Shown: positions 4,449-23,500 of the stretch, piece after piece
Layout: each line of letters starts with the position of its first letter
How positions within the stretch are numbered: position 1 is the first letter of the stretch
Source of the DNA: Candidatus Nomurabacteria bacterium
GTDB taxonomy: Bacteria > Patescibacteriota > Minisyncoccia > Phycocordibacterales > UBA9973
Length of the DNA stretch: 64,000 nucleotides
NCBI GenBank assembly: GCA_016199805.1
Contig: JACQGC010000004.1
Span: 19,816-83,815 of the forward strand
Direction: 5' to 3'
Notes under the pieces: model-generated
What the model was told of the DNA's origin: nothing
Databases searched by the model: none
Seen by the model: the letters and a program-made list of their open reading frames with translations, nothing else
Program-made: the position numbers and the translations under genes

Positions 4449-4634
4449 TTAGCCTATGATTTTCTGCAAGACTTGTGAAAAAATAAAATCCCAAATCCCC
4501 AAGTAATAAGCTACTACTACGGACAAAACAATGACTATCAAAGTATAGTATAAAGTTTGGTTCCTGGTCGGCCAAATTACGTGTTTGAGTTCTGTTTTTG
4601 TCTCCTTAAAATACTCGGTTATTTTTGATCCCAT
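4449..4634 (-). CDS. secE: preprotein translocase subunit SecE
   Basis: 61 aa; KETKTELKHVIWPTR followed by a single TM helix; position upstream of nusG. Confidence 0.85.
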   Translation of the reverse strand: MGSKITEYFKETKTELKHVIWPTRNQTLYYTLIVIVLSVVVAYYLGIWDFIFSQVLQKIIG

Positions 4635-4667
4635 AAGAAAATTTAAATACTAAAGTTTGGTGATACT

Positions 4668-4700
4668 TTTTGCCCTGTTGATTTTCTAACGGGACAAGCA
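4668..4700 (-). promoter_or_regulatory. diverged copy of the upstream element (ccctgttgattttctaacgggacaag) upstream of secE
   Basis: Shares the ttgattttctaacgggaca core with the copy upstream of rplS (16896-16922). Confidence 0.4.
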
Positions 4701-4705
4701 TATCT

Positions 4706-4728
4706 CTTTTAAAAAAGCCCCCTTTCAA
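4706..4728 (-). terminator. rho-independent terminator downstream of the SIMPL-domain gene
   Basis: Minus-strand hairpin AGCCC-TTGAAAGG-GGGCT followed by TTTTTT. Confidence 0.55.
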
Positions 4729-4765
4729 GGGCTCTTTTAACAGTACTATCTTTCAGTCCAAAATG

Positions 4766-4844
4766 CAACCCCCTAAATCCCCCTTGTCAGGGGGACTCCC
4801 CAATTTTCCATCCCCTGATAAGGGGAGGGTTAGGGAGGGGTTGT
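4766..4844. repeat. GC-rich palindromic element with terminal inverted repeats CAACCCC/GGGGTTG and two internal hairpins
   Basis: TCCCCC-TTGTCA-GGGGGA and TCCCCT-GATA-AGGGGA hairpins; GGTTAGGGAGGGGTTG tail resembles other family members. Confidence 0.6.
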
Positions 4845-4846
4845 AT

Positions 4847-5710: not shown

Positions 5711-5737
5711 ATAATAATTCCCGCCGAAGCGGACAAG

Positions 5738-6241
5738 TTATTTTTTAATTCCTAATAATTCTACTTCAAAGGTCAAAGTGGCGTTTGGAGGAATGACTCC
5801 GCCGGCGCCCGCGGCTCCGTAACCATCGGCTGGCGCTATCACCAAAGTTTTCTTTTCACCGACTTTCATTCCTACTATTCCTTTATCCCAGCCAGGAATT
5901 ACTTGTCCGGCACCCAAAGTAAAAATAAAGGGCTGGACGTGTTTGAATTTCGGGTCAACATTTGAATCGAAAACTGTGCCGTCTGCTAATCGTCCGGTGT
6001 AATTCATCGCAACCGTATCACCTGTTTTTGCCACTGTGCCGAGTGGAGCGGAACCCTCGGGAACTTGCCCTGTCGGAGCGGGAGTGGGAGTTGCGTTGTC
6101 TGCTACATTATTTACTGAGTTGTTTGTATTATTATTTACTGCCATATTTGGTTTATTTTTTATACTGATAAAAACTATAGCACCTATTAAAACCAGACAA
6201 ATTACCACTGCCAAAACTATATTCATCTTTTTATTTTCCAT
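5738..6241 (-). CDS. FKBP-type peptidyl-prolyl cis-trans isomerase, membrane-anchored
   Basis: GDTVAMNYTGRLADGTVFDS...GAGQVIPGWDKGIVGMKVGEKK...ATLTFEVELL FKBP signature; N-terminal TM helix. Confidence 0.9.
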   Translation of the reverse strand: MENKKMNIVLAVVICLVLIGAIVFISIKNKPNMAVNNNTNNSVNNVADNATPTPAPTGQVPEGSAPLGTVAKTGDTVAMNYTGRLADGTVFDSNVDPKFKHVQPFIFTLGAGQVIPGWDKGIVGMKVGEKKTLVIAPADGYGAAGAGGVIPPNATLTFEVELLGIKK

Positions 6242-6294: not shown

Positions 6295-7371
6295 TTACAC
6301 AATATTGACTTCGGGCTTTAATTCCAGCCCAAATTTTTCTTTCACCGAGGCTATGATTTTATTGGCCAATTCGATGATTTCTTCACCTTTTGCGCCACCG
6401 TGGTTTACCAAAACCAAGGCTTGCTTGTCGTGCACGCCGACATTCCCCATCCTTCTCCCCTTCCAACCGCATTGCTCTATCAGCCATCCGGCTGGAATTT
6501 TGTACTGTATTTCCCCCCTCTCCTTCGCAAGGAGAGGGGTTGGGGGTGAGGTCATATTTTCTTCTTCAAAGTGTGGAATTTCCGGATATTTTTTTTTGAG
6601 TATTTCCAATTCTGTTTTCGTCACAAAAACATTTTTAAAAAAGCTTCCGGCGTTGCCTATTATTTTCGGGTCGGGTAGTTTGCTTCTGCGTATCTCTGCC
6701 ACAGCGTCGCTGATATTTTTAAGTGTTGTTGTTTTGTTGGTTTTTTCCAAATAATCAGACAGAATCTTGTAAGAAACGTTTGGCTTTGGTGTCTTGCTTA
6801 ATTTTAAAGTCACTGCCGAAATAAAATATTTTCCTTTCAATTTATTTTTAAAAACACTATCCCTATAGCCAAGTTCGCATTCTTCACAGCTAAAAATTTT
6901 TTTCTCTCCGCTCTCAATCTCAAAAGTTTCCACACTAAAAAGAGTATCTTTGAGTTCGGCTCCGTAGGCGCCAATGTTTTGCATCGGCGCCGCACCGACT
7001 GTACCCGGAATGAGAGACAAGTTTTCAATTCCCCAATATCCTTTATCTACGGCAAACAACACAAGACCATGCCAGCTTTCACCGCCCATCGCTCTAATAT
7101 AAACACACTCTTTCCCGACCCCTGTCGGGACCCCGACTTTGGTCGGGGCTATACCTTTTACTTTATTTAAAATAACTATACCGTCGAAATCTTTTGTAAA
7201 AAGAACATTACTTCCACCACCCAAAAATATTTTTTTGTTATTTTTAAATTCAGGCGTCGCCAAAAGTTCTTTCAAGTCTTCTTCTGAATTTAACTCGACA
7301 AAAAACTTGGCGTTTACAGAAATACCGAAAGTGTTTAATTTAAGCAGATTGTAATTATTTTCTAATATCAT
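6295..7371 (-). CDS. murB: UDP-N-acetylenolpyruvoylglucosamine reductase MurB
   Basis: LGGGSNVLF, GIENLSLIPGTVGAAPMQNIGAYG and GNAGSFFKN motifs; start taken at MILENNYN (the ORF-track N-terminus overlaps the upstream gene); contains an in-frame palindromic insertion. Confidence 0.9.
   Translation of the reverse strand: MILENNYNLLKLNTFGISVNAKFFVELNSEEDLKELLATPEFKNNKKIFLGGGSNVLFTKDFDGIVILNKVKGIAPTKVGVPTGVGKECVYIRAMGGESWHGLVLFAVDKGYWGIENLSLIPGTVGAAPMQNIGAYGAELKDTLFSVETFEIESGEKKIFSCEECELGYRDSVFKNKLKGKYFISAVTLKLSKTPKPNVSYKILSDYLEKTNKTTTLKNISDAVAEIRRSKLPDPKIIGNAGSFFKNVFVTKTELEILKKKYPEIPHFEEENMTSPPTPLLAKERGEIQYKIPAGWLIEQCGWKGRRMGNVGVHDKQALVLVNHGGAKGEEIIELANKIIASVKEKFGLELKPEVNIV
6511..6553. repeat. 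palindromic element copy inserted in-frame in murB
   Basis: cccccctctcc-ttcgcaa-ggagagggg followed by ttgggggtgaggt; translated in murB as MTSPPTPLLAKERGEI. Confidence 0.65.
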
Positions 7372-7372
7372 A

Positions 7373-8647
7373 TCAATGTCCCAATGTAAAAAACATCGCC
7401 ACTGCCGCTGCCCCCATAAGCACAAAAGTACCCCAGACTAGTATGTTTGATACATTACCACTCTTGTGTTCACCCATGATTTTTTCGTTCCTGGCTATCT
7501 TGCCGATTATAAAGATAAGTGGAACGGCGGCTACGCCATTGAATACAGCGGTATAAACCAAGGCTTTAATCGGGTCTATGCCAATGAAATTTATCATCAA
7601 GCCGACAATGGTGGCGATAGTGATGACTCCATAAAATCCATGAGCTTTTTTTAATTTCAAATTCAAACTTTCTTTCCAATTTAAAGTTTCGGCGACGGCA
7701 TAAGAAGCGGAAGCGGAAAGCACCGGCACGGCCAGGAGTCCGAGCCCGATGACTCCGACGGCAAAAATCAACTTGGCTAAAAATCCCGCATATGGAAATG
7801 TATGCACCAAGGGCTCCAGGGCTTTGGCCGCGTCCGCGGCGGTGGCGATATTGGTTATGCCATGAGTGTTTAGGACTGTGGCAGCAACGACGATGATACA
7901 CCATGTGGCTATTTCCGAAGACAGCATCCCGACAAAATTATCAATTCTAAGATTTTTGAGAAAAGATTTTGTAATATGTGTCTCGCCGTGTTTTAAGAGG
8001 TGCTTAGCTCGTTCTTCTTCCACTTCTTCGGACGCTTGCCAAAAAAACATATATGGGGAAATAGTCGTTCCGAAGACACCAGTAATGATAAAAAGAAAAG
8101 CAAAACTCAATTCAATATGCGGAATGAAGGTGGCTTTTAATATCGTCAACCAGGGTTGTTTGACTAAAAATAAAGTCAAAGGATAAGCGAGCAAAGAAAA
8201 AGCCAGCCATTTCAAAATCTTGGCATATTTTTTATAGGAGATAAATATTTCCAGTGACAAAATCAGGGCGGTAAAAAAAAGTGTCAGCACTGTCAGGTTG
8301 ATTGGCAAAACAAGCTGCGCGGCGGCCGCCATCGCCCCCAAATCTGCTCCGATATTGATCGTATTGGCTAAAACAATAAGGACGACTGCCGCATAAAGCA
8401 TTTTCTTGCTGTAATTTTCTTTAATCACGGCGGCAATTCCTTTGCCAGTTACCGCCCCGATTCTGGCGCAAGCCTCCTGAATGGCGGTCATAAACGGCAA
8501 TAGCAATAAAGCTGTCCAGAGTTGCCCATAACCAAATTGCGAACCGGTCTGCGAATAAGTGGCGATGCCCGAAGGGTCATCATCCGCCGCGCCGGTAATA
8601 ATCCCCGGCCCCAGTTTTTTCCAAAAGCTTTTTCTCATATATTTCAT
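7373..8647 (-). CDS. NRAMP-family divalent metal cation transporter (MntH-like)
   Basis: GPGIITGAADDDPSGIATYSQ N-terminal signature resembling the Nramp GPGxLxxxAxxDPGN motif; 11-12 TM helices. Confidence 0.65.
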   Translation of the reverse strand: MKYMRKSFWKKLGPGIITGAADDDPSGIATYSQTGSQFGYGQLWTALLLLPFMTAIQEACARIGAVTGKGIAAVIKENYSKKMLYAAVVLIVLANTINIGADLGAMAAAAQLVLPINLTVLTLFFTALILSLEIFISYKKYAKILKWLAFSLLAYPLTLFLVKQPWLTILKATFIPHIELSFAFLFIITGVFGTTISPYMFFWQASEEVEEERAKHLLKHGETHITKSFLKNLRIDNFVGMLSSEIATWCIIVVAATVLNTHGITNIATAADAAKALEPLVHTFPYAGFLAKLIFAVGVIGLGLLAVPVLSASASYAVAETLNWKESLNLKLKKAHGFYGVITIATIVGLMINFIGIDPIKALVYTAVFNGVAAVPLIFIIGKIARNEKIMGEHKSGNVSNILVWGTFVLMGAAAVAMFFTLGH

Positions 8648-9639
8648 TTTAGCATTTTCTGCAATTTATATGCATTCCCATGTTTCAACATCCCCAAATA
8701 AGATTGAATCGTTGCTGGTTTCTGGCTATTTTTCACATTCTTAAGCATTCTCCTTTCCGTGCTAGTCCGCAAAACTCTATGCTCAGGAAAATGTACCCAG
8801 CCAAGAAAATCCACACCAGAAGCAATGGTTTTAATATAAACTTTATCTGGGTGCATTTGTAATTTTAATTTGTTTTCCAAAAATTCTTCCATTTTTTCTA
8901 ACACATTTTCTAAATACTTTTTGTCTTCACTCAAAACAACAAAATCATCAGCATATCGTATGTAATATTTCACTTTCAATTCTCTTTTTGCAAACTGGTC
9001 AAATTCATTCATATAGATATTTACTAAAAGTTGAGAAGTTAAATTACCAAGCGGTAGACCTTTTTGCATATTTACGCTATCGCGCATATATGCATCTGTG
9101 TAAAAACTGTCTATCACTTGTGAAAGTAGCCATAAAATATATATGTCAAAGACCGTCTTTGACAATATTCCTTTTAAGATTTGATGATCAATATTCGCAA
9201 AGAATTTTCGGATGTCGCATTTTAATACAAGGCAAGACCTTGTACTGTTTTTGGAAACTTTAAAAATATAGTCTTGAAATCTATTTATTGCTTTATGGGT
9301 GCCTTTGTTTACCCTGCAGGAATACGAATCATTTATAAATTTGGAGTCAAAATATTCATACAGTTCTTGGTAAATTAAATGGTGAAGCAATCTGTCTCGT
9401 ACTGTAGCTTTATGGATTATTCTTGGTTTGGGGTCAGAAATATTGAAAGCTGTGTAACCTCCGTGAGTATATGTTTTGTTTTTTAAATCATTATGTAGAT
9501 CGAGAATATTATCCATCAACTTAGCTTGAAATAGAATCACGTCTTTCCTATCTTTTTTATCATGTAAAAATTCCTGCCAAGCTTTGAGCAGTTTTTCTAC
9601 AGTTATGATATTATCGTAAGTATGCATAAATTGTTTCAT
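8644..9639 (-). CDS. DGR-type reverse transcriptase
   Basis: RT motifs DIRKFFANIDH, LPLGNLTSQLLVNIY (DGR-specific GxxxSQ motif 4), YADDFVV and FLGW thumb; no maturase or endonuclease domains; TR/VR pair adjacent. Confidence 0.85.
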   Translation of the reverse strand: MKQFMHTYDNIITVEKLLKAWQEFLHDKKDRKDVILFQAKLMDNILDLHNDLKNKTYTHGGYTAFNISDPKPRIIHKATVRDRLLHHLIYQELYEYFDSKFINDSYSCRVNKGTHKAINRFQDYIFKVSKNSTRSCLVLKCDIRKFFANIDHQILKGILSKTVFDIYILWLLSQVIDSFYTDAYMRDSVNMQKGLPLGNLTSQLLVNIYMNEFDQFAKRELKVKYYIRYADDFVVLSEDKKYLENVLEKMEEFLENKLKLQMHPDKVYIKTIASGVDFLGWVHFPEHRVLRTSTERRMLKNVKNSQKPATIQSYLGMLKHGNAYKLQKMLK

Positions 9640-9748
9640 ATTTCTCGGACCCCCCCCCGCAGCGCCTTCAGCGCTTTTAAAAACAAAAACCGCCTACTCT
9701 CTTTGGTTTAACATATATAACGATTTTCCGAAAGCGCATAGATACACC

Positions 9749-10006
9749 TTGGGTGGAAAGATTGAAGATTATTTCCTCGGGTTGTTGGAAAACATTTTCA
9801 TTTCTATTTATCTACCGCCGGAAACTAAAATTCCCCGACTTATTATCGCAATTTCTAAACTTGATGGAGTTAAGTTTTTTCTACAAATCGCTTGGGAAAA
9901 TAAATGTATTAGTAATGAAAAATATTCCCAGCTTTCAGAAAAATTAGATGAAATTGGAAAAATGCTTGGTGGTTGGAAAAAAGGCCTAGAAAAGAAAACT
10001 CCCTGA
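9749..10006 (+). CDS. Avd-like four-helix-bundle protein (short or truncated; TTG start)
   Basis: C-terminus SEKLDEIGKMLGGWKKGLEKK and LPPETK segment match the TIGR02436/Avd family pattern (..FPKDE.. / ..EEVSKMLNGL..); about 30 aa shorter than typical and on the strand opposite the RT. Confidence 0.4.
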   Translation: MGGKIEDYFLGLLENIFISIYLPPETKIPRLIIAISKLDGVKFFLQIAWENKCISNEKYSQLSEKLDEIGKMLGGWKKGLEKKTP

Positions 10007-10030
10007 ACTTAGTCAGGGAGAAACATTCTT

Positions 10031-10147
10031 AGTTTCGGAACGACGATTCGATGAGCGTACTTGGCATTCCAGACATTGCTGTTCTCAAGCGGATTGACGT
10101 TCAAGTTCAGACGACCATCGTCATACACGTTGACGTTGGCAACGAAG
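10031..10147 (-). repeat. DGR template repeat (TR), 117 nt
   Basis: Near-identical to 10523-10639; all 18 mismatches fall on TR adenines (minus strand); AAC-rich. Confidence 0.85.
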
Positions 10148-10453
10148 ATTTGTAGGATAAGCCATCTATTCCACCGCCAGCCTGAGCATAACTTAATATC
10201 AAAGACTGTGCTGTATATTATTTGAGAGCGTAAAACTCTTCCAACTCACCCCACCAACTTTTATGTTTTTTTGTTTTAAAAAAGAATTCACTCTTCCACG
10301 AGACATATCCGGCGAAATTCTCAAATTGATTTTTAAGCAATCATGTCCCAAAGCCTTGACCGTGAGCATTTCCAGATTGCGGATTTAGTATATATTAAAA
10401 TTTAAAAAGATAAAGGGTCAAAGGGAAAAAGTTTCAAAGTGACAAATGAAAAA

Positions 10454-10502
10454 CCGTTCCTCCAGGTCGGCTTTTCACCTTACTGATGGAACGGTTTGAT
10501 GT
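10454..10502 (-). promoter_or_regulatory. inverted repeat/hairpin immediately downstream of VR (candidate DGR target-recognition structure)
   Basis: ccgttcctccagg ... ctgatggaacgg (10 of 12 complementary) with a ~19-nt loop, starting ~20 nt after the target stop codon. Confidence 0.5.
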
Positions 10503-10518
10503 TGAAACAGAAACAAAG

Positions 10519-11199
10519 TTACAGTTGCGGAACGACGACCCGATGAGCGCACCTGGCACCCCAGACATTGCTGAACTCAAGCGGATCGACGCCCAAGTCC
10601 AGACGACCATCGCCACACACGCTGACGCCGGCAACGAAGAAGCCGCCGTTTTCCCCCTCAAACAGGAAGAAGGTACCGTAGCCCTCTGCACGAAGATACT
10701 CGCGGTTGCGAGGATCTCGACAGAATGCCACGATTTGCGACTCCTGCCAGCAGAGACGTTTCAGATTCTCGCCGAAGCCTCCGAAGACCTGTGCGTAAGT
10801 ACCGTCTTTGATCATGTAGTAGACGGCTAGGACGGTTTTTTTCGTTGCCTTGCAGACTCCACGCTTCGCGGCTCCGTAGATGCCCGCATTGAAAACGTCA
10901 TTTGCTTCTGCCAGCGTCTCCTTCCCGTCGGTTTCCGCGAGCTCAATTGTGCGATCGGCAAACAAACGCTTGAGCCGCCCGACCACGTTCTCCGCGAGCT
11001 CGGCGAGAATAGTCTTCACCGTAGCTTTCACCACTGCCGCGATTTTATCACCCTGAGTCAATACCCGCTGAAAGTTATCGCCGTGGAGCACCCCGTTGGC
11101 GGAGAGCTCGATTACTGCCTCGTCTACTACCTTGCGGGTCGCAGACGCCACAACCGTCATCAACTGCTCTTTTCTTTCGAGTGTAATCATGCTGGGCAT
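10519..11199 (-). CDS. DGR target protein with C-terminal variable region (CLec/FGE-like fold inferred)
   Basis: VR occupies the last ~39 codons (..GYGTFFLFEGENGGFFVAGVSVCGDGRLDLGVDPLEFSNVWGARCAHRVVVPQL); higher GC than flanking genes. Confidence 0.8.
   Translation of the reverse strand: MPSMITLERKEQLMTVVASATRKVVDEAVIELSANGVLHGDNFQRVLTQGDKIAAVVKATVKTILAELAENVVGRLKRLFADRTIELAETDGKETLAEANDVFNAGIYGAAKRGVCKATKKTVLAVYYMIKDGTYAQVFGGFGENLKRLCWQESQIVAFCRDPRNREYLRAEGYGTFFLFEGENGGFFVAGVSVCGDGRLDLGVDPLEFSNVWGARCAHRVVVPQL
10523..10639 (-). repeat. DGR variable repeat (VR) at the 3' end of the target gene
   Basis: 117-nt match to the TR with 18 substitutions, exclusively at TR-adenine positions (A to G 15, A to T 2, A to C 1); ends 2 nt before the stop codon. 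Confidence 0.85.
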
Positions 11200-12375: not shown

Positions 12376-12447
12376 CCCAGTACTAAAATTTTAATTTATA
12401 AACCCTATCTTTATTACCCGTAATCAAAAATTTAGTACGGGACAGGT
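12376..12447 (-). promoter_or_regulatory. conserved bipartite upstream element (canonical copy) abutting the tsaE start codon
   Basis: cccagtactaaaattttaattt...cccgtaatcaaaaatttagtacgggacaggtt; ends near-identical to the nusG copy. Confidence 0.55.
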
Positions 12448-12487
12448 TGCTTTCATATTAACATATTTTGGTGTATTATCTTAAGAC

Positions 12488-12880
12488 ATGAGAAATAATA
12501 TTGCGAAATTTTTCGATAAATTGGAAATTATGATACGGGGGAAATTGAGCCATTACCCTATTTTATACGCACTCGTAGGCGGAGTGGGCATCGTGCTATT
12601 TTGGCGCGGCGTCTGGCACACCGCCGATGACATGAATATGAGTAGTATCCTGTCCTTAATATTGGGATTTTTTATCCTCGTTTTGACCGGAGTGTTTGTG
12701 GCGGAATTTATCGGAAACAAACTCATTATGACCGGCCTCATCGGTGAAAAAAAATTGGAAGAAAAAGAAGAGGGTGAAATCGAAACGGAAGAAAGCCAAT
12801 TGAAAAATCTGCAAAGCACTTTAAACCGACTGGAAAAAAAGTTGGAACATATTGATGAAGAAATAGACGAAAAGAAATAA
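12488..12880 (+). CDS. hypothetical membrane protein with acidic coiled-coil C-terminus
   Basis: Two TM segments followed by a KKLEEKEEGEIETEESQLKNLQ coiled-coil-like tail. Confidence 0.4.
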   Translation: MRNNIAKFFDKLEIMIRGKLSHYPILYALVGGVGIVLFWRGVWHTADDMNMSSILSLILGFFILVLTGVFVAEFIGNKLIMTGLIGEKKLEEKEEGEIETEESQLKNLQSTLNRLEKKLEHIDEEIDEKK

Positions 12881-12942
12881 CTTTTATTTCATAATTTTTT
12901 CACCCCTTCTTTTATAGGATTTGATATGAAGGAGTACCTGGT

Positions 12943-13095
12943 ATGCAGTGGGTAGAAGCTTGGTTCACGGCAATAAAGCTCTTCGTAGTCGCGATCTTGG
13001 GTATATTCGTCTTGGTCATCAGAAAGTTTTCCAGGCGGACCCAAGACAGGGACGAGATGAAGAAAAACGTGAGGAGAAATGAAGACAGGTTATAA
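12943..13095 (+). CDS. small single-TM protein (50 aa) with strong RBS
   Basis: GAAGGAG 8 nt upstream of ATG; MQWVEAWFTAIKLFVVAILGIFVLVIRKF TM helix; followed by a strong terminator. Confidence 0.35.
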   Translation: MQWVEAWFTAIKLFVVAILGIFVLVIRKFSRRTQDRDEMKKNVRRNEDRL

Positions 13096-13108
13096 GCCCA
13101 AAGCGAAA

Positions 13109-13143
13109 GAGGCGCCAACGATCCGTTGGCGCCTCGCTTTTTA
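13109..13143 (+). terminator. rho-independent terminator
   Basis: GAGGCGCCAACG-ATC-CGTTGGCGCCTC perfect 12-bp stem followed by a T-run. Confidence 0.7.
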
Positions 13144-13383
13144 TAGATGCCTCGGCCTTGCATTGGAATATAATATATAAACCAAGGCCGTTATGAAAGA
13201 ACTACGCTCGCAACATATTGTTGTTTTTTCGCATAATCTCATTTCAAGAGCAAGGCACGACTGGCCCGTCAAGTTGTCCTTCGCGTATGCTCACGCATAA
13301 GCTCCAGATCTCCCTCAAGGCCAACTCGCCCGGGGTGAAATAAAATAGTTTGAAAAACAAAATATAAATGCGAGGCTAAAGAA

Positions 13384-14262
13384 CTAGTTGTCGTTGCAGG
13401 CTGCCAGTTTTTTTCTCATCTCCGCCTGTGAAATTGTTGGGATTCTCAATTTTGTGTGTTTATCCAAGTGGTCATGTTTGTTTTTTGGATTGTCTGCAAT
13501 GTTATCTTCAAAACAATACACACAACCAACCCGGCGTATGGTTGTATCACGCCACTCAACAACCTCTCCATAATACACGAAGGGTTGTTTCGGCTTCGGA
13601 CGTAATTTCTCTATCTCCTCGTTAGCAGTTTTCAATCTTTCATTCAACGCATCAACTGCTTCCTCTTTGTCAATTTGATTTTCCTTTTCCAGGTGCGGAA
13701 TAAAAGAAAACCAGAAATAAGCCAGAACAGCCGTGGCTCCGAACAAGCAACCGAGACCTATTCCCCAGAACATACTTGAAATTACGGATTGGTCCGCCCC
13801 CTTGAGAAGAAGGTGAAGTTTACCGTTCACCTCCCCCAGATGTTTATTTTTGTCTTGTAGATTGTTGTTGTCAGCGCCGGGAGATTGCCCTTGTTTCTCT
13901 TCGTCCGCAACCTCGGTTTCTTCTTTCTTGTCTTCCAACGTCGACATCGCCGTCTCTTGTTTTTGGAATGCTTTTATGTCCTTAAACAAGAGGAGTGTGT
14001 CCTGCTGAACTTTCTCTGACGGTTTTTCCGCCTTGCAGTTGTCGGGAACAAACATAGTGTCCCCAACGTGAATTTTCGTGAGCCGAAATGACGGCACGGC
14101 GCTCAGCCACATCACTTCGGATGTCCAGAGAACACTGCCACATTCTCTACTGGCGACATCTACAATACCGGCGTCACCTTCTTGAAACATTGTTTTTCTT
14201 ACCGGAGCGGCCGCGCAAAGCGCGGCCCCCACGATGCAAATCATCAGCAATCTACCCGTCAT
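13384..14262 (-). CDS. island-encoded membrane protein (signal peptide, central TM, Cys-containing C-terminus)
   Basis: MTGRLLMICIVGAALCAAAPV signal-like N-terminus; WGIGLGCLFGATAVLAYFWFSFI TM; coiled-coil EEAVDALNERLKTANEEIEKLR; immediately downstream of the FtsZ-like gene. Confidence 0.45.
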   Translation of the reverse strand: MTGRLLMICIVGAALCAAAPVRKTMFQEGDAGIVDVASRECGSVLWTSEVMWLSAVPSFRLTKIHVGDTMFVPDNCKAEKPSEKVQQDTLLLFKDIKAFQKQETAMSTLEDKKEETEVADEEKQGQSPGADNNNLQDKNKHLGEVNGKLHLLLKGADQSVISSMFWGIGLGCLFGATAVLAYFWFSFIPHLEKENQIDKEEAVDALNERLKTANEEIEKLRPKPKQPFVYYGEVVEWRDTTIRRVGCVYCFEDNIADNPKNKHDHLDKHTKLRIPTISQAEMRKKLAACNDN

Positions 14263-14270
14263 GATTACTC

Positions 14271-15716
14271 CTAACTTTTTGGTCTTAGTCTCGTCAGGTC
14301 GTGTGGAATGTATATTTCAACTTCTGTCGCCTGAGCTATCGCCCGCTGAACTTTTTCCGCTATTTCTAAGCGAAAAAGTGACGGATTCCCAGTGTAGAGA
14401 GAAAGTTCTTGGTAACGCTTAGCAAGTTCCGGAGAAGCCTCAACCTCTTGCTTGTCACCCTTGGCGTTGATGACCACTTCAAACCGAACCTTGGGTTGTT
14501 CGGCGACCACGGCGCCATTCGTCTTCTGCGGCGCAGGCGGCGCAACTTCCAGAGACACCATTGGTCTGCCCACGATGGCGGGAACCCCGGTCTCCGGCGT
14601 CATTGGTTTACCCATAGCGAAAACCGAACCCTCTTTCTTTTCGTTTGCGTCGGGTAGGTTTCTGGGCGGGTCTTTCGCTACCGCCATTAGCCTGACCCTT
14701 TTTACACCCTTCTCCACGCCCCTTTTCTTTATGCCGAACTTCAACTCATACGGTTCACCGTGAACCATCTTTTTCCTGATACACTCCTGTATGGCCTCAC
14801 GGTCTTGAATGGGCCACCCTTTATCTGACTCATACCAAAGGACTACCCTCAGGGCGTTCTCAATAATCCTCGGATTGAGACATGGAGCGCCGCTAAACAA
14901 AACGTTATCTATGTCACCCAGGCTGTTGTTTGTGGCATCGAAAGATATGGGCAGAGCGTGGTTGCCCGTAGCCAATAACTTTTTCAAGTCGCTCAGGTCC
15001 AGGTCCCTGACATCCCCCCAATCCTGGAGCAACGATTTGTAAAAATCCAAGATCCAGAACAGGGACGTCTCGTTTATTTTCTGCCAGGCCTCTTCGTCGT
15101 CAATTGTTTTGTCCTGCCACCTCTCATTCTCAATGAGCGTGACCGTGCAATATTTCAAGATCCGCTCGTACATGTCTCCGCCGTGCCTCACCCGCTCCGG
15201 CCCCTCACCCACACTAGGCATTGCGAGGATGGCGTAAGTGGGTATATTCATCTTCTGGAGCATTTCTGCTACCGGTGGCACTGCGCCACAAGTACCGCCA
15301 CCCAAACCGGCGACCAAGCAGACACTATCATACTTGGCAAAAAGGTCTTTAAGGAGTTTTGTTTTTTCCTCTTCCTTGACCATCTCTTCGCCTTTGTTCG
15401 CATCGCCGCCAGCTCCCCAACCTTTTTCTCCCAACTGAAGTTTAAGAAAACGGTCCTCAAGACGAGTCCAGCCGAGCATATGACCACAATCTGCTTCTTC
15501 GCTTTGGTTGACTTCAAAACGATTCTTCAACTGGCTCTGATTGGACTCCATAGCCAAAACAGTCAGGTGGGGATTCATCTCTGGATCATATTTTCTGAGC
15601 ATTGCCGCAATTGCCGTCGTGCCGCAACCGCCGAATCCCACAACTAACAATTTTGCTTTTACTTTGGGAGCAATTACTTCCTCTTTTTTTTCAACCTTCA
15701 CGTCTTTATCTGCCAT
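14271..15716 (-). CDS. divergent FtsZ/tubulin-superfamily GTPase
   Basis: T1 loop VVGFGGCGTTAIAAM, T3-like GWGAGGDANKGEE, T4 signature VAGLGGGTCGAVPPVAEM (cf. FtsZ GGGTGTG); alignable to E. coli FtsZ over the GTPase domain; long divergent C-terminal half. Confidence 0.8.
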   Translation of the reverse strand: MADKDVKVEKKEEVIAPKVKAKLLVVGFGGCGTTAIAAMLRKYDPEMNPHLTVLAMESNQSQLKNRFEVNQSEEADCGHMLGWTRLEDRFLKLQLGEKGWGAGGDANKGEEMVKEEEKTKLLKDLFAKYDSVCLVAGLGGGTCGAVPPVAEMLQKMNIPTYAILAMPSVGEGPERVRHGGDMYERILKYCTVTLIENERWQDKTIDDEEAWQKINETSLFWILDFYKSLLQDWGDVRDLDLSDLKKLLATGNHALPISFDATNNSLGDIDNVLFSGAPCLNPRIIENALRVVLWYESDKGWPIQDREAIQECIRKKMVHGEPYELKFGIKKRGVEKGVKRVRLMAVAKDPPRNLPDANEKKEGSVFAMGKPMTPETGVPAIVGRPMVSLEVAPPAPQKTNGAVVAEQPKVRFEVVINAKGDKQEVEASPELAKRYQELSLYTGNPSLFRLEIAEKVQRAIAQATEVEIYIPHDLTRLRPKS

Positions 15717-15730
15717 CTCTTCTCTCCTCC

Positions 15731-16096
15731 TTACTCTTCGGATACAACTTCAAAACTTTGTTGCGCTTTGTACTTGAGATACGACGGGTCGCTGAATATC
15801 TCCAGAAGACGTTGCTGGATAAATGCCTTCACTTGCTCTTCGTCTGAATCACCCAAATCGGTGAAGACAAAGAACAGAAGCATTTCTACCGACCGCGTCA
15901 ATTTATCTCCTGACCCGCCAAGCTCAAGCGTCACCCCATGCTCAAACCTCGTCCTAATGTTGGACGCACTTGTTTCAAGACTTTCTTTGACGTCGGCAAT
16001 AATTGCTGCTCCGACGCTCATCAATTCCTCCCTCTCTTCGTCGGTAATTCTTCTCGGGTTATTATCTACGTCCGCGCTCCAGCTCCCCACGAACAC
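15731..16096 (-). CDS. island-encoded small acidic protein
   Basis: 121 aa, Asp/Glu-rich, directly upstream of the FtsZ-like gene on the same strand. Confidence 0.35.
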   Translation of the reverse strand: MFVGSWSADVDNNPRRITDEEREELMSVGAAIIADVKESLETSASNIRTRFEHGVTLELGGSGDKLTRSVEMLLFFVFTDLGDSDEEQVKAFIQQRLLEIFSDPSYLKYKAQQSFEVVSEE

Positions 16097-16220
16097 CCCC
16101 TTTCTTTTTACTTTTAATTCTCTTCTGTTTTCAACGAACTCGCAACGAACTAGAAAATGCCCATTGTAAAATTCTGTCTTGAGAATATCAAAACAGTTAT
16201 GAAAATATTATGAAAATAAA

Positions 16221-16295
16221 TGGGGTGGTTATCGGGGGTTGAACCCGAACTAAAAGCTCCACAAGCTTCTGTGCTGCCGCTACACCATAACCACC
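16221..16295 (-). tRNA. tRNA-His (anticodon GTG) with encoded G-1 and CCA
   Basis: Cloverleaf with 8-bp acceptor stem (G-1:C73), anticodon loop TTGTGGA, T-loop TTCAACC, 3' CCA encoded. Confidence 0.8.
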
Positions 16296-16320
16296 ATGTA
16301 CAAAAAACAACAAAACACTG

Positions 16321-16404
16321 TGCTCGGGGGGAGATTTGAACTCCCATGCCCTTGCGGGCGCTACCACCTCAAGGTAGTACGTCTACCAGTTTCGCCACCC
16401 GAGC
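16321..16404 (-). tRNA. tRNA-Leu (anticodon GAG), class II with long variable arm
   Basis: GCTCGGG acceptor, anticodon loop TTGAGGT, long variable arm GCGCCCGCAAGGGCA, T-loop TTCAAAT. Confidence 0.75.
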
Positions 16405-16979: not shown

Positions 16980-19900
16980 CTATTTCCCCAATATCATCAT
17001 GGCCTTGGTCTTGGGACCAATGAGTCCATCGGACACAAGCCCATGATTCTTCTGCCACTGTTTGATGACAGCGATAGTCTTTGGCCCAATTTTGCCGTCT
17101 AAAACCAAACCGAGTTTCATCGTGTCATTTAGATATCTTTGCAGTTCTTTAGCGGTATCGCCTATACTTCCTAGTTTAAGAGTAGTGAAACCGAAATTAT
17201 ACATCAGCGTAGGATTGATGGCAGAAACATTTATGGTGTTTGTGGTCGCAATCGCAGTTTTGGCGGCAACATTTCCCGAACAAGATTGTCCCGTGGCAGT
17301 ACTAAAGCCCGTGATTCTAGAACCACAACCTGGCATAGATATCGGAGTAGGAGGTGTATAGCTTCCTCCCCCTCCACCACCGCCACTACTTGGCACATAA
17401 ACCAAGGTAAAGTTCGCGGTAATATTTTTATCCGCATCCATAGAAACAGTCATTGGATTAGCTGAAGAGGTGATATCTCCAGACCAATCAGAGAATGCGT
17501 ACCCGGAATTTGGAGTTGCAGTGAGAATGATAGAACTTCCAAAATCATAGTTTGCCTGGTCTGGGTTTTTGGCAACGGTGCCATTGGTGGAGAGAATGGA
17601 TATTATATAGGTGATGATATTATCTTGGATTTGAGTTGTGGCGGAACTCAAGGAAGCAGAACCGGTGCCACTTGCAGAAGAAGGGGTCACTTGGAATTTT
17701 AAATATTGTCCAATATCGGAAGAAGTTAATATATATGTAATAGCGGTTGCGCCACCGATGGCAGTATATGTTCCTCCCGAGGAAGAGGAACGAAGCCATG
17801 CATATGTTGTGCCGGATTCGGGCAAACTATTTGGGTCAGAAAATGCGTATGAACCTGTCAGTGTTTGGCCGATTGTTTTTGTGCCAGAAATGGTGACATT
17901 GGTAGCAGTAGGTAAACCGAAAGATTCTGTCGCTTGAGATTTAATTACATATGATGCTTTGTTCCCTGCTTCGTCTTTAAGTATAACATTAAAGTAATAA
18001 GTGGTGGTGGAAGAAAGACCGGAAACAGGAAGAGTGTTGATGTCTGTGGTGTAAGTGTTGAGTGGTGTGCCATTGGCTTCAATATTGGTCACCGTATCGA
18101 TATTATTGGAAGATGATTGATACACCCTGTATTGTAGAACTCCCTGAGCCGAGACATCGTCTGTGCCTTTAGTCCAATTTAAAGTAAGACTACTTGTAGT
18201 AACACTTGCAGTGGTAATGACGCCACTTGCTCCCGGTGTGGGATTTACTAAATCACCCGCTGAACTAACCGCGACCGGAGCATTTAAACTCGTGGAAATA
18301 TTTCCGTTGGCATCTTTGGCCCAGGCATAAAGAGTTTTTGAGCCATAAGTGGAGAACGTGTAATTGGCAGGAGCACTTCCTGTCCAACCGGCATTTCCTG
18401 CCAAGGGCGCCGTAGGTGACTCAGTCAGAAGATATCCGGTGACGCCAATATCGTCCGTGGCGGTAAAAGAAGATACGGAAACAGTCAATGAACTGGAAGT
18501 AGCGGGAATTGAGAAAGCAGTTACAGTGGGGGCGACATCGTCATACACATATGGTCCTAGGTCCCAATCATAGTTGGCGCGGTCAAGCAATTGAATATTG
18601 GTATAGCTGGCCGGACTCAAACCCACATTGTATGGAACGCCAAGATTTGTCCCGCTATTGATGAGAGAAGAACCGGGGGAAAGTCTGTAATCACTTGTGT
18701 CTGTGTATGTTTTTGTCCACGACAGACCACCATCAGAAGTCGTATGCCCATCGGAATAAATACCTGCCGCGATGGAAGATTGGGTAACAAAAGTTCCTCC
18801 GAGATTTCTTATTTCATCCACAAACCAAATCAATTTTTGGTTTGTCACATTAACGGCATCGGTAAGGTGCCAAAACATTCCTATGTAACCACCTGCGGCG
18901 GCGGCCAATAAATAAGTGTGACGAGCCACTTTACGAATATCGGCTTCAGTACTAAATCCATTCATCGCCCAAGACATTGCTTGCCCGGACAACATATATG
19001 GGTGGATTGATGGCATATACATATACCCCCCACCGGCTGACCGGGCACTGGTAAATGTGGAAGAAATCGTTGGCATATACGCTTCAGCCCCCGCATCGGA
19101 CCATCCTCCTCCATATGCAAAAGAAACTGGAACTGTTCCGATGTTGGATGCAATCCAACCAGCTGAATCTAAAATTTCTTCATCTCTATATGCTGACATC
19201 AGCATATTTACAACGTATGGAAAGGTTGTGCTGGTTTGGTTATCCAATGCCTTCAGACGCACAGGGTCATTCATATTTGTTGTATTGCTGATGGTCCACC
19301 CTTTTCCGGTGGCAGAAAGTCCGACGCATGCATTCGCCACATTGATAGTTTTCTTAAAATCACATAATGTTTTGTCTGTTACTGACCAATCAATCAGAAT
19401 ATTATTTTCTGGGTTACCACTACTAGCCAGACTGAGGGTGTGAGCGGTCCTGTCTATGGTTACTGTATTAGTTCCGGAATTTGTTGTTGATACAGTAAAC
19501 ATAGAAGTTTTGGTGACATCCGAATGAGACCAACTGTGCGAACCAATTTCTATTCCCCTAGCAGGAAGAGATGACAAAATAGTTTTACCTCCGGATGAAA
19601 TTCCTGTAAGATTTGTTAAATACGCCAAGAAAGGGATAGTGTTTGTTCCAAAGGCCGCATCAAATGCATCTGCCAATCCGCTGGAATACGCGGGGATACC
19701 TGCATAATCATCTCCATCAATAGACAAAACAATTTTTACTGCAGGAAAAGGTAAAGCTTTAAAGTTTGGAACCGTAGAATAATTATGTCCTCCATCGGTT
19801 ATGGTTCCACTTCCGGAAAAATTACCAGCTATAAAAGAAGCAGTTGTAACTCTATTATTGCCGAGAATAAGACTATAATCATAATCAATAGTGTTGCCAG

Positions 19901-20549
19901 TGGCAACGGCAACTCCGGCCCCGCCTGTAAAAACTCCCGTGCCATAACCATTTCCTTCAATGATTGAATTGCGAACAGTTGTGATTGCCCCTGTGCCAGC
20001 CATAGAAATTGCCGAACCGGCACATTGGGTAATCAATGAATTGTTTAGAGTCACCGTTGCTGAGTTGGCAACAGACAAACCAATTCCGGCGGCACGGCGT
20101 ATTATTACATTAGATAAAGACAATGAATCGGAAGCTCCAACTGATACGGTCCCTTGAAAATCCAAATACTCCGCCTTGATTCCGGTTCTACCTGTAACCA
20201 TATTTATCGCATAACCACTGGAACCAGGAATAGCCGGAAGTGCTCCGGTATCAGCGACATCATATAGTGTATAAGTTATACCATTTTGGCTAGGAGATAT
20301 TGACTGAGCCCATGAACAACCACGTTTAAACATAACCGTGGCATTCAATCCAGCTGAGGTGTTAGCTTTGGTAATATTTTTCCAGGCCGTTGCAGGAGAT
20401 GTTCCATCTCCTGTATCATTTGCAGCATTGCAGTCAACATAATACGTTGTGCCACCAGCATGAACCATCTTTCCGAAAGAAAACAAAAAGCAACAGAAAA
20501 CCAAAAATACAAATATTTTTTCTGTTTTATTGATTTTAATGCGAAACAT
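16980..20549 (-). CDS. giant secreted protein: right-handed beta-helix + polysaccharide deacetylase (NodB)-like + Ig/FN3-like repeats + C-terminal peptidoglycan-binding domain
   Basis: Signal/TM N-terminus; beta-helix repeats (NSIIEGNGYGTGVF..GNTIDYD..); LSIDGDDY and IGSHSWSHSD NodB-like motifs; C-terminal LNDTMKLGLVLDGKIGPKTIAVIKQWQKNHGLVSDGLIGPKT PG_binding_1-like. Confidence 0.65.
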   Translation of the reverse strand: MFRIKINKTEKIFVFLVFCCFLFSFGKMVHAGGTTYYVDCNAANDTGDGTSPATAWKNITKANTSAGLNATVMFKRGCSWAQSISPSQNGITYTLYDVADTGALPAIPGSSGYAINMVTGRTGIKAEYLDFQGTVSVGASDSLSLSNVIIRRAAGIGLSVANSATVTLNNSLITQCAGSAISMAGTGAITTVRNSIIEGNGYGTGVFTGGAGVAVATGNTIDYDYSLILGNNRVTTASFIAGNFSGSGTITDGGHNYSTVPNFKALPFPAVKIVLSIDGDDYAGIPAYSSGLADAFDAAFGTNTIPFLAYLTNLTGISSGGKTILSSLPARGIEIGSHSWSHSDVTKTSMFTVSTTNSGTNTVTIDRTAHTLSLASSGNPENNILIDWSVTDKTLCDFKKTINVANACVGLSATGKGWTISNTTNMNDPVRLKALDNQTSTTFPYVVNMLMSAYRDEEILDSAGWIASNIGTVPVSFAYGGGWSDAGAEAYMPTISSTFTSARSAGGGYMYMPSIHPYMLSGQAMSWAMNGFSTEADIRKVARHTYLLAAAAGGYIGMFWHLTDAVNVTNQKLIWFVDEIRNLGGTFVTQSSIAAGIYSDGHTTSDGGLSWTKTYTDTSDYRLSPGSSLINSGTNLGVPYNVGLSPASYTNIQLLDRANYDWDLGPYVYDDVAPTVTAFSIPATSSSLTVSVSSFTATDDIGVTGYLLTESPTAPLAGNAGWTGSAPANYTFSTYGSKTLYAWAKDANGNISTSLNAPVAVSSAGDLVNPTPGASGVITTASVTTSSLTLNWTKGTDDVSAQGVLQYRVYQSSSNNIDTVTNIEANGTPLNTYTTDINTLPVSGLSSTTTYYFNVILKDEAGNKASYVIKSQATESFGLPTATNVTISGTKTIGQTLTGSYAFSDPNSLPESGTTYAWLRSSSSGGTYTAIGGATAITYILTSSDIGQYLKFQVTPSSASGTGSASLSSATTQIQDNIITYIISILSTNGTVAKNPDQANYDFGSSIILTATPNSGYAFSDWSGDITSSANPMTVSMDADKNITANFTLVYVPSSGGGGGGGSYTPPTPISMPGCGSRITGFSTATGQSCSGNVAAKTAIATTNTINVSAINPTLMYNFGFTTLKLGSIGDTAKELQRYLNDTMKLGLVLDGKIGPKTIAVIKQWQKNHGLVSDGLIGPKTKAMMILGK

Positions 20550-20553
20550 AATT

Positions 20554-23500
20554 TTATTGCACCAAAGAATACATCAAGGCTTTTGTTTTTTCACCGACGA
20601 CACCGTCTGCAAGCAATCCATGACTTTTTTGCCATTTCATAACAGCGGAAAGTGTTGTTGTGCCAAACTTTCCGTCGAGAACCAACCCGGCTTTTGATGT
20701 ATCATTTAAATATCTTTGCAATTCTTTAACCGCATCTCCCGCACTCCCTTTTTGTAGAGTGACGGTACCTAAATTATATTTTTGGGTACTAGTTGAAGGA
20801 ATTGGTTTTGTGGGTTTTGGCGGAATTGGAGTTGTATCGCCATTTTTAGGAGTGGAAACCGGTTGTGGAGTCGGAATGTCAACAGGAACAGGAGCAGAAA
20901 TAACGCCGGTTGATATTTCATAGACGTGGGCTTGGTACGGAGTAAAGGTGTCGGTAAAACCATTTCCGGAAACAGTTAGGTTTCTATTCTCACCATAAAC
21001 AGACACCAGTGAAGGTGTCGTGCTCCAAGTAAAAGTGACTGGAACAGTTGCATTGGTATTATTGGAAGCAATCAGATATCCTCTGCCACCTGCATATTTC
21101 ACTCTGGTGTGAATACTGCTGTTTGAGCTGAAAGAAAGCAGGTCATTCTTATCAATGGAAGACAAGGCCGGTTGGAGAGAATTGAGTTCTGTGGTTACGG
21201 CTTTGAGGTTGTTGAAATTATCAACTTTGGCCTGACACCACGAGAGCGAACCGGAAGGCGAATGAGCCGCATCGGAACCATCACAGATATACGCCAAAGC
21301 CCCAACACCCAAACTCCAATACACTAGCCCATCGCTCCCCTCGGCAATTGCCATATAGGACATATTGCGAAGTTCCGCTTGGGTCGGCCAGCGACCCTTG
21401 GAAGTAAATTTAAAGAATTGGATGACAGTGGCAACAGGTCTGCTGTTTTGCACGGCATCTTTTGTGATTTTTGTCTGATTAGCCACTAGAGAATAATCAT
21501 AACCGCTAGCTGGTTCTGCTCCGTACAAAGCGTATGGGTCCATGGAAAGCAGGTCAACGGTGTCTCGCCAGTAAGACATTGAGTTTGGAGTATTCCCTGC
21601 GCCAAAAGAAAGACCGATAGGGTCAAGATTTCTCAACTTGTTGTAATAAGTAAACATATCCGGCGCCAAATAAGACACACATTCGTCCATATTGTATTGA
21701 CCGGCAAAACCAGGATATTGGCCCCGAGCAACAATATCGGCATCGCTGAAAGTTTTTAACCAACCATCATCATAAGTACTGGTTGAAAAACAATTGGCGT
21801 TGGAAACAAGAGATATCCCATGTCTCTGTAAAACATTCATCAGCGGAAAGGCAGCGCTGTTTGGCATATTACCCAGCCAATAATTAAACCAGAAATTTAC
21901 CGGCAGTTCAAATAATCGCTTGGTAGAGGTGAGCGTGTTTTCCCAAGTGGTTTCGCTCATTGAGTATCCACCACCGGAATCATACACACCGAGCAAAAAC
22001 TTTGGCTGACCGTTAAATAAAATCTGATTATTTTGATTGAAGGAAATAGGAATGGAATTTCTGACAGAGCCGGAAACTTTGGAAATTCTATAAGACGGAT
22101 ATTCGTACAAAGCTACACTATTTGAACTGCGCAATAATTTAAACCGCGCCAAATAAGTATGGCCATTTGTCATGCTGGAGCCACTTAAAGTAGCTGTAAA
22201 ATCGGCAGATGATGAGTATGATTGGTTTGCAACCACGGAACCGCTGGATTCGTCTGTCAGAGTAATTTCCGGTTTCCAATCGCCAAGCGTTGTCCCAGCC
22301 GGAGGATTTATCTTTACATCAAATTTTATGGTCTGAGACTGGTCGTCAAAAAGAAATCCTTTATAATTTGGATAGAGCATAAATACATCCATGGGTGACT
22401 GATATTCTTCTTGTATCGCCATATCGTCAAACCAAGCCTGACCTGCCGGTTCATTCCAGCTTTCCAAAACAAATTTCACACTTGAAGAATCCTGATTGAT
22501 GACAACATTTTTTAACTCAACATATGTCCAATCATTGACTCCATTCAGACATTTACCCACCCCGTTTCCGGCACTGCCTGCGTTTACACTAATACGAACA
22601 CAGGGATGAATAGTAGTATCAACCAAGTTTGTTTTTATCCAACCGCTGATACGATAAGATCCTTTTTTCAAAGAAAGAGTCTGCCTGGCGGATTCCGTAT
22701 AGGGGAAACTGGGAGCGTCTTTCATACTATAACTACTTGCTCCGCCATGAACTGTAGAAGAATCAACCAGAAAAGCGGACGAACCCGACCAATTTGCCGG
22801 TTTACCACTGGATAATGTTTCAAAACCGGAGTTAAGTAATAAATTTGGACCGAGGCTAGCCATTGGATACCACATCAACCCTCCAGCCACCAATCCATTG
22901 ATTGGAGCAGACGGAGTCGGAGCATTAAATTCCATCATGTCACTTGCGCTACTACAACCTGGGTCATTCGGATAATCTATTTTGCCATCCAAGTCATTAT
23001 CAATGCCATCAGAACATTGTGGAAGGCTTGAATCTGGAAGAACAACGACGGGCGGAGTCGGGGTGCTGACTGGCGGTATATTTGTAGTTGGCAAGGTTGT
23101 CGTTGGAGTTGTCGGATTGTTGTTCGTAGGGGTTGTGGTAGGCGGTGGCGTGTTGCCGGTATTACTAATCATCACGGAAGCATCGTCAAACCAAGCTGTG
23201 CCATTTGGGTCTCCATACATTTCTACAACAAAGTAAGCCGGAGAATCATTGGTGATTGTGACATTCTGCACCTGTAAATATTGCCAGTCGCTGGCACCTT
23301 TTATGATTTGTGATGACTTACATCCATTAACGCAGGCATTTGGGTATACTCCGGTATTAAAATTTATTCTCAAACCACTACCAACCGTTGATGCTACCCC
23401 ATCCATTTTCACCCACATGCCAATATTGTAAACACCCTTTGGAAGGGTGCCGATAGTTTGCATTGCCGACTGGGAATAAGGTATCAAGTTTGCATTAACG

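Follow-up and report, generated by a model that had tools for sequence, protein, structure and literature searches.

Canonical FtsZ (TIGR00065; PF00091 plus PF12327) is built from a GTPase core, a disordered linker and a C-terminal docking element, the short peptide that binds FtsA, ZipA or SepF, and its gene usually lies in the division and cell wall (dcw) cluster, beside ftsA or ftsQ. Several divergent members of the superfamily have been described. At ~1000 aa, FtsZl1 contains a long coiled coil, and neither T6-H7 nor a C-terminal subdomain can be recognised in it (Makarova and Koonin, 2010; PMC2875224). It travels with vWA, GTPase and OmpA-family genes (PMC2875224) and carries Tubulin_2, PF13809 (PMC9871819); the proteobacterial FtsZl2 has an unrelated C-terminal region of ~300 aa (PMC2875224). 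TubZ and PhuZ are tubulin-superfamily GTPases encoded outside the dcw cluster, in small operons that are carried by plasmids or phages and are characterized by a TubR-type adaptor and centromere repeats, and the GTPase-tubulin-HSP70 systems are defined by GAP1-N2 or DO-GTPases, vWA, HSP70 and FNIII partners (Kaur et al., 2020; PMC7159879). In addition, some genomes of the candidate phyla radiation (CPR; Patescibacteria) have a second, divergent copy of FtsZ that is inferred to descend from the CPR FtsZ and is attracted to the Verrucomicrobiota branch (Santana-Molina et al., 2023; PMC9871819); that paper mentions the copy in passing, as a phylogenetically unstable branch, and gives no operon partners, C-terminal domain or function for it. 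Here we analyze 64,000 nucleotides of a Candidatus Nomurabacteria bacterium (assembly GCA_016199805.1, contig JACQGC010000004.1, positions 19,816 to 83,815; hereafter the window), in which a divergent FtsZ paralog, protein B, is encoded between a small acidic protein, A, and a membrane protein, C. This conserved A-B-C cassette constitutes an FtsZ-paralog system of CPR bacteria that has hardly been described before.

The three genes lie on the minus strand. Gene A (15731..16090; HY311_00560), the first in the operon, encodes a cytoplasmic protein that is small (119 aa) and acidic. Its open reading frame (ORF) covers 15731-16096, corresponding to 121 aa with the upstream GTG at 16096 as the start, but the GTG at 16090 is likely the true one, in agreement with the gene call in the independent Logan assembly and with the N-termini of homologs. 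Gene B (14271..15716; 481 aa) starts 14 nt past the stop of gene A, with an AGGAGG Shine-Dalgarno sequence upstream, and its product is identical to NCBI HY311_00555, located on a 214-kb contig. Gene C (13384..14262 in the ORF list; HY311_00550), encoding a bitopic membrane protein of 292 aa, starts 8 nt past the stop of gene B. The first-pass annotation of this DNA, made by a model from the letters and an ORF list, had proposed a minus-strand unit of 121, 481 and 292 aa amid many spurious ORFs; the three ORFs are present as described, as are numerous overlapping plus-strand ORFs of at least 60 aa within 14271-16169. It had also remarked on the lack of flanking dcw genes, and indeed gene B lies outside the dcw cluster, its neighbors being tRNA-His, tRNA-Leu, rplS, a transmembrane (TM) ORF, tsaE and Sua5. 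The genes immediately beside the cassette include no ftsA, mur or ftsW (murB is ~6 kb away, at 6295-7425), and the sole FtsA-like match in the window is a PilM protein (30885-32036).

Protein B is a divergent FtsZ/tubulin-superfamily GTPase, as had been read from its sequence at first pass. It matches the Pfam family Tubulin/FtsZ, PF00091, with an E-value of 1.4e-13 (score 52 bits, gathering cutoff 33; residues 23-202), and scores 69.4 bits on the NCBIfam ftsZ equivalog TIGR00065, below the cutoff of 295.2; PF12327, the FtsZ C-terminal subdomain, was not detected by Pfam. By this low equivalog score and the lack of an adjacent ftsA, B does not resemble the canonical ftsZ of the dcw cluster, which is in line with the first-pass annotation. 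The best PDB sequence match is FtsZ, aligned over both FtsZ subdomains with an E-value of 2.6e-13, and sequence E-values to FtsZ range from 2.6e-13 to 3.4e-19, whereas the match to TubZ/RepX reaches only 0.051. FtsZ proteins of Verrucomicrobiota and Prosthecobacter appear among the weak sequence matches. In the alignment with Aquifex FtsZ, which spans residues 54-317, the T3, T4 and T7 elements read GWGAGGD, GLGGGTCGA and DLDLSD, respectively.

The AlphaFold2 (AF2) model of protein B, built from a 48-sequence family alignment, has a mean predicted local distance difference test (pLDDT) score of 87.6 and superposes on the full two-subdomain FtsZ core (~335 columns, TM-score 0.85 on the target). 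In this model, the core (~20-355) is followed by a disordered linker (356-402), a small, confidently folded beta-beta-alpha-alpha domain of ~65 aa (~403-470) and a flexible tail at the end; a coiled coil is absent. All of the top 50 Foldseek matches in the PDB are FtsZ (best E-value 4e-23, TM-score 0.81-0.85, ~21% identity), and the best viral structures in BFVD (E-value 1e-15, TM-score 0.56-0.63) fall below cellular FtsZ. Canonical FtsZ is the closest relative of B by both sequence and structure, and shares with it the T1, T3 and T4 loops, N197, the T7 aspartates and the succession of core, disordered linker and C-terminal docking element. The two also differ: B has an insertion of ~20 aa with a conserved W83 between H2 and S3, a G-box that, in its close subfamily, lacks one residue and includes a Cys (GGGTCGA instead of GGGTG[ST]G), a folded C-terminal domain of ~65 aa in place of the short FtsA/ZipA-binding peptide, and the dedicated partners A and C in place of an adjacent ftsA. 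The canonical C-terminal peptide (D-I-P-x-F-L-R/K type) is absent from protein B, and the tail consensus among its closest relatives is TGxxFDVP.

An exhaustive hmmsearch over 1.84 billion cluster representatives placed B in a family of its own; word-indexed protein searches had given only three to four family members and almost no partners. With this search, 47 cluster representatives were recovered at E<1e-30, above the background of canonical FtsZ, and the family hidden Markov model sets apart at least ~78 full-length members (50%-identity clusters, drawn from the top 150 of 5,598 hits) from canonical FtsZ, with a gradual boundary. In neighbor-joining (NJ) trees, two rogue sequences aside, the family splits from 70 canonical FtsZ sequences in 200 of 200 bootstraps by a best-overlap measure, the exact bipartition having earlier been found in 2 of 200 owing to rogue taxa and a distance cap. 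Across 48 family members G29, G32, G101, G103, N197, D240 and D243 are invariant, and G137, G139, G141 and G144 are conserved in at least 90%. Because the glycines of T1, T3 and T4, N197 and the T7 aspartates D240 and D243 are kept in this way, the polymerization-activated GTPase machinery is under selection. The canonical C-terminal peptide, sought by regular expression, occurs in 3 of the 78 family members versus 58 of 171 canonical FtsZ sequences. Where source names are given, they are all from the CPR (Candidatus Nomurabacteria, 'Patescibacteria group bacterium' and Candidatus Saccharibacteria), and the proteins are presently annotated as 'hypothetical protein' or mislabelled as 'cell division protein FtsZ'. 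An archaeal protein of 336 aa with a tubulin domain, P0011, joined the family in 150 of 200 NJ bootstraps; this was treated as long-branch attraction, and the protein was rejected as a member. On its contig (L016, 2191-6416), P0011 and then a membrane protein of 283 aa are encoded between two CetZ genes, and this membrane protein is not homologous to protein C.

Neither partner gave a family match in Pfam, NCBIfam or PDB sequence searches, protein C yielding only coiled-coil noise in Pfam. Protein A, with an isoelectric point of 4.4 computed from the window sequence, is predicted to adopt an alpha-beta-beta-alpha-beta fold (pLDDT 85), which is unrelated to TubR, and has no helix-turn-helix; no catalytic residue is conserved, and G61 is the only invariant position among its homologs. 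For protein C, hydropathy gives an N-terminal signal or anchor, an ectodomain, a variable low-complexity or coiled segment and, before the cytoplasmic tail, a TM helix spanning ~163-188. The protein is bitopic, with its N-terminus outside, one TM helix and its C-terminal tail in the cytoplasm. Six residues are invariant across loci (C41, G67, P73, C76, G232 and C247), among them the two invariant cysteines of the ectodomain, C41 and C76. The cytoplasmic tail carries C247-x2-C250-x14-H265-x3-H269, in which all complete sequences retain C250, H265 and H269; this arrangement resembles a C2H2-like zinc-binding pattern. ZipA and MapZ (LocZ), membrane proteins that are likewise bitopic, bind FtsZ through their cytoplasmic part, and the extracellular part of MapZ binds peptidoglycan. 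Protein C may follow the same logic, as a single TM helix joins its ectodomain to its cytoplasmic domain and its gene lies beside an FtsZ-like gene, but the protein has no sequence or family relation to these proteins, is opposite in orientation to MapZ, having its N-terminus outside, and bears the CxxC...HxxxH element in its cytoplasmic part.

The partners are a constant feature of the locus. The order A-B-C was found in all eight fully flanked loci (the window, L001, L003, L007, L009, L011, L013 and a JGI contig), and two partial loci, L012 and L014, agree with it. Intergenic gaps within the cassette range from -14 to +25 nt across loci, the small protein from 99 to 136 aa and the membrane protein from 257 to 400 aa, and homologs of A and C are present even in L009 and L013, where the identity of B falls to 23%. 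A search of genome and metagenome contigs with a three-sequence alignment brought up no further loci. Beyond the cassette the surroundings vary, with differing housekeeping genes among loci; in six other contigs the flanks are housekeeping CPR genes, and in the window they include rplS, tsaE, Sua5, a diversity-generating retroelement (DGR), Nramp, murB, FKBP, SIMPL, secE, nusG and other housekeeping genes. In the related metagenomic genome L001 (cassette at 2674-5882), however, the cassette occupies the same syntenic position, with nine shared neighbor genes whose products are 68% (a TM protein, 124/130 aa), 56% (Sua5), 63% (MurB), 70% (FKBP), 64% (SIMPL), 86% (SecE), 92% (NusG), 82% (L11) and 79% (Vut_1) identical. 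Genes for division or wall synthesis are found near the cassette in several loci: mraZ-rsmH directly downstream in L011, ftsW-murG 4 kb downstream in L003, and murB in the window and L001.

The region had been described at first pass as a high-GC island with abrupt borders, and of this description the enrichment stands and the abruptness does not. The GC content of the cassette (13384-16096) is 0.487, versus 0.420 in the rest of the window, a difference of 6.7 points. Peaks of 0.55-0.56 in 300-bp windows are confined to 14300-14750, and the stretch 12930-13700 lies at 0.39-0.45, with no step at 12930. The GC contents of genes A, B and C, 0.464-0.501, correspond to z-scores of +0.9, +1.3 and +0.6, respectively, relative to the 47 genes of the window (mean 0.428, sd 0.057), and their GC contents at third codon positions (GC3), 0.50-0.56 versus a mean of 0.44, to z-scores of +0.7 to +1.4. 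Three unrelated genes are richer still, at 10519-11199 (0.562), 26804-27514 (0.551) and 39704-40450 (0.577). The latter two are short genes, one with a PEP-CTERM sorting motif and the other with collagen-like repeats, and their values of 0.55-0.58 indicate that GC-rich genes are scattered through the genome. The enrichment of the cassette is thus real but modest, and it is not unique. Continuity of the assembly across the proposed borders, for which a check had been suggested, holds: a 3882-bp contig of the Logan assembly of SRR12113408 is 100% identical to 12419-16300 and spans both borders, so that mis-assembly of the cassette region is unlikely.

Taken together, these observations lead us to favor, with moderate confidence, the view that A-B-C is a chromosomal, vertically maintained operon, seen so far only in CPR bacteria, that encodes a lineage-specific membrane-tethered filament system. 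Protein B would be a fast-evolving FtsZ paralog that keeps the two-subdomain core, the nucleotide-binding loops and the catalytic aspartates of T7. Because the complete core, loops and aspartates are kept, B is expected to polymerize head-to-tail in a GTP-dependent manner, and GTP-dependent protofilaments are what its sequence predicts. The linker, the folded domain of ~65 aa and the conserved tail may stand in for the FtsA/ZipA-binding peptide, and the cytoplasmic CxxC...HxxxH tail of C is the most likely docking site for the C-terminal domain of B, an interaction that would tether the filament to the membrane. The ectodomain of C, with its disulfide-type cysteines, might in turn couple the filament to the cell envelope or wall, which is conjecture, and A is most likely an assembly modulator or an adaptor bridging B and C. 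The role of the system would probably be in division or envelope remodelling, alongside canonical FtsZ. CPR bacteria, which account for a large part of bacterial diversity, have tiny cells, reduced genomes and an almost unknown cell biology; a second polymer derived from FtsZ, with intact catalytic machinery and two unannotated partners, would offer a testable handle on how they organize division and envelope. If the tethering holds, it would represent a new solution to joining an FtsZ-type filament to the membrane, by a folded C-terminal domain and a zinc-finger-tailed anchor rather than by a peptide with FtsA, ZipA or SepF.

Several points weigh against this view. The contacts of B with C and with A are inferred from gene order. 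The fold matches of protein A are generic, and the likeness of the ectodomain of C to LysM is a conjecture from a motif seen by eye, with no Pfam LysM match even at E<=10. The linkage to dcw or wall genes in four of the eight loci, two of which are not independent, is suggestive and not clearly above chance for small genomes. The cassette is richer in GC than its flanks in five of six loci, by as much as 12.5 points in L001, and between the window and L001 proteins A, B and C are 47, 37 and 42% identical, respectively, compared with 56-92% for the flanking proteins. A canonical ftsZ, alongside which B would act, was not found by tblastn in the window, which is 64 kb of the 214-kb contig; because only about one quarter of the contig is visible, this absence says little. 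In favor of the view, on the other hand, PMC9871819 reports a divergent second FtsZ in some CPR genomes; that copy resembles the B family in being CPR-restricted, highly divergent and linked to Verrucomicrobiota FtsZ, and is likely, by its description, the same family.

The same features would also fit a system that acts apart from division. It is possible, and we entertain this tentatively, that A-B-C is a self-contained, CPR-specific cytoskeletal system independent of the FtsA/FtsZ divisome, serving for example to shape, polarize or attach ultra-small episymbiotic cells. Equally tentatively, such a system could comprise B with its own C-terminal docking domain, C as a dedicated TM anchor with a zinc knuckle inside and a cysteine-stapled, wall-binding-like part outside, and A as a small adaptor; if this were true, the A and C families would represent new classes of FtsZ-binding proteins. 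The opposite assignment, in which B is the organism's only FtsZ, a highly diverged housekeeping protein, with A and C replacing the FtsA/ZipA/SepF tether and the cassette forming the core of the divisome, appears unlikely. One might be led to it by the failure of tblastn to find a canonical ftsZ in the window, by the proximity of the cassette to mraZ-rsmH in L011, ftsW-murG in L003 and murB in the window and L001, and by the retention of all GTPase and T7 residues. However, the divergent CPR FtsZ of PMC9871819 is an extra copy beside a canonical, dcw-linked FtsZ, ftsA is not adjacent to gene B, and the family, with its at least ~78 full-length clusters among the top 150 of 5,598 hits, is small relative to the breadth of CPR lineages that retain FtsZ. 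Nor is B to be identified with FtsZl1 or FtsZl2. All three are divergent FtsZ-superfamily GTPases in conserved operons with membrane-associated partners, with a proposed function in membrane remodelling, so that the suggestion of an FtsZ-like membrane-remodelling family, offered at first pass as an alternative, was right in spirit; the two described families themselves were rejected, as B, with its 481 aa, PF00091 and full FtsZ core, differs from them in size, Pfam content and partners, and no vWA, OmpA or GTPase neighbors were found in any locus.

The remaining explanations treat the cassette as mobile or as part of a conflict system. The first-pass annotation had seen an integration island at a tRNA hotspot carrying a tubulin-like segregation device of the TubZ/PhuZ type; the evidence indicates that the cassette is probably neither a plasmid or phage segregation device nor a recently integrated island. 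There is no integrase or transposase among the annotated ORFs at 459-32036 and no repeat of the tRNA end of at least 14 nt beyond one chance-level 14-mer; the GC shift is modest, and L001 has the cassette in the same position. A horizontally mobile cassette, for which a GC-richer CPR donor would have been the source, by acquisition or in situ replacement and possibly at tRNA-His/tRNA-Leu, and which no longer has mobility genes, is nonetheless a reading with some evidence behind it, although we consider it improbable. GC offsets from the flanks are seen in the window (+0.067), L001 (+0.125), L007 (+0.058) and L009 (+0.046), GC3 is raised, the flanks differ among the other loci, and the upstream (tRNA) edge of the cassette is precisely where the synteny with L001 stops. 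The low identity of A, B and C relative to their flanks, combined with the GC offset, leaves some room for horizontal replacement. On the other hand, the module lacks an integrase, a transposase and att-like repeats, has no phage, plasmid or viral relatives, and keeps its place relative to Sua5, MurB and NusG in two diverged genomes; the GC z-scores are only 0.6-1.3, with several unrelated genes richer, and a GC offset is lacking in L003 and L011. The low identity is accounted for equally well, and more simply, by a paralog that evolves fast, an account that does not extend to the GC offset. Candidate causes of the divergence and the offset include fast evolution, expression-linked codon bias and xenologous replacement.

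As for the reading as a DNA-segregation module of TubZ/PhuZ type, carried by a plasmid or prophage that had integrated, B shares with TubZ and PhuZ a place in the tubulin superfamily and in a compact operon outside the dcw cluster, here beside tRNA genes, and the zinc-finger-like motif of protein C could in principle bind DNA. But B is far more similar to FtsZ, as the 50 FtsZ structures at the top of the Foldseek list, the poorer viral structures and the E-values of 0.05 for TubZ/RepX and 2.6e-13 for FtsZ indicate. Moreover, tblastn against 50,697 phage and 72,556 plasmid records gave no match, IMG/VR viral contigs hold no relative of the cassette, and neither PHROG nor PADLOC gave a match for it. 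With folds best matched by FtsZ, weaker viral matches and no relatives in these collections, the TubZ/PhuZ reading is not supported. The locus has no iteron (centromere-like) array and no TubR-like DNA-binding partner, since protein A is acidic and has an unrelated fold, and housekeeping genes flank every locus, so that we find a segregation module hardly credible. A conflict or defence system with a tubulin-like polymer as effector or scaffold, comparable to the GTPase-tubulin-HSP70 systems of Kaur et al. (2020), might be suggested by the fast-evolving proteins, the unannotated partners and the DGR 2 kb away in the window. It is very unlikely, however, because PADLOC gave no match, the cassette sits among housekeeping genes rather than in defence islands, and no consistent co-localization with defence genes was seen in nine loci; the GAP1-N2/DO-GTPase, vWA, HSP70 and FNIII partners (PMC7159879) are absent in all loci, and the DGR is missing from the syntenic L001 locus.

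The immediate surroundings of the operon in the window contain several further elements. ARAGORN and Rfam both identify tRNA-His(GTG) at 16221-16294 and tRNA-Leu(GAG) at 16320-16404, confirming the two tRNA genes named at first pass. They lie on the minus strand, upstream of the operon and in the same direction; neither is present upstream of the cassette in the other loci, and both are neighbors outside the conserved cassette. Between tRNA-His and gene A, a consensus scan found a promoter-like TTGATA-17-TACAAT site on the minus strand (16163..16191; 10 of 12 positions match), a putative promoter by its pattern, and a tandem repeat of 11 nt x2 lies just upstream of it, at 16197-16218. On the other side of the cassette, convergent to the operon, a plus-strand ORF of 50 aa with a single TM segment (12943-13095) has AAGGAG 7 nt upstream and is followed by a plus-strand terminator of a 12-bp hairpin and a T-run (13109-13135, from a terminator scan). 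This corresponds to the small TM protein with a strong Shine-Dalgarno sequence and terminator that had been noted at first pass. The ORF is also called as a gene in the independent Logan assembly and has a weak PHROG match to an Rz-like spanin (E-value 0.005), but it was not found beside the cassette in other loci and is a neighbor only. Next to it, at 12488-12880 on the plus strand, is a gene for a 130-aa membrane protein that has a weak PspC-like match (E-value 0.0018) and whose C-terminal tail is acidic and coiled; it has the same opposite-strand place beside the L001 cassette (68% identity) and was not found there in other loci.

An exact 30-nt repeat, CCCGTAATCAAAAATTTAGTACGGGACAGG, occurs at 4411-4440 and 12417-12446, where zero copies would be expected by chance. 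It contains a small hairpin and lies within a similar intergenic stretch of ~70 nt that directly precedes nusG and tsaE, both on the minus strand, and the independent Logan contig ends inside the repeat. The repeat might represent a small repeat element or the duplication of a leader or promoter.

The DGR at 8644-11199 is complete and is absent from the syntenic L001 locus. It comprises a reverse transcriptase (8644-9639, minus strand), an Avd-like ORF (9749-10006; NCBIfam DivGenRetAVD, E-value 3.9e-11), a template repeat (10031-10148) and a variable repeat (10523-10640) that is 85% identical to it. All mismatches between the repeats fall at a T of the template on the plus strand, that is, at an A on the coding strand. 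The variable repeat is located at the 3' end of a GC-rich (0.56) minus-strand gene of 226 aa (10519-11199).

Finally, it should be noted that the region 16980-23805, directly upstream of rplS and the tRNA genes, encodes two very large secreted proteins of 1189 and 1083 aa that end in PG_binding_1 domains, the first of which also has beta-helix, InlB B-repeat and Ig-like domains. The two look like CPR surface or adhesin-type proteins, and similar very large PG_binding_1 proteins are encoded near the cassette in L009.

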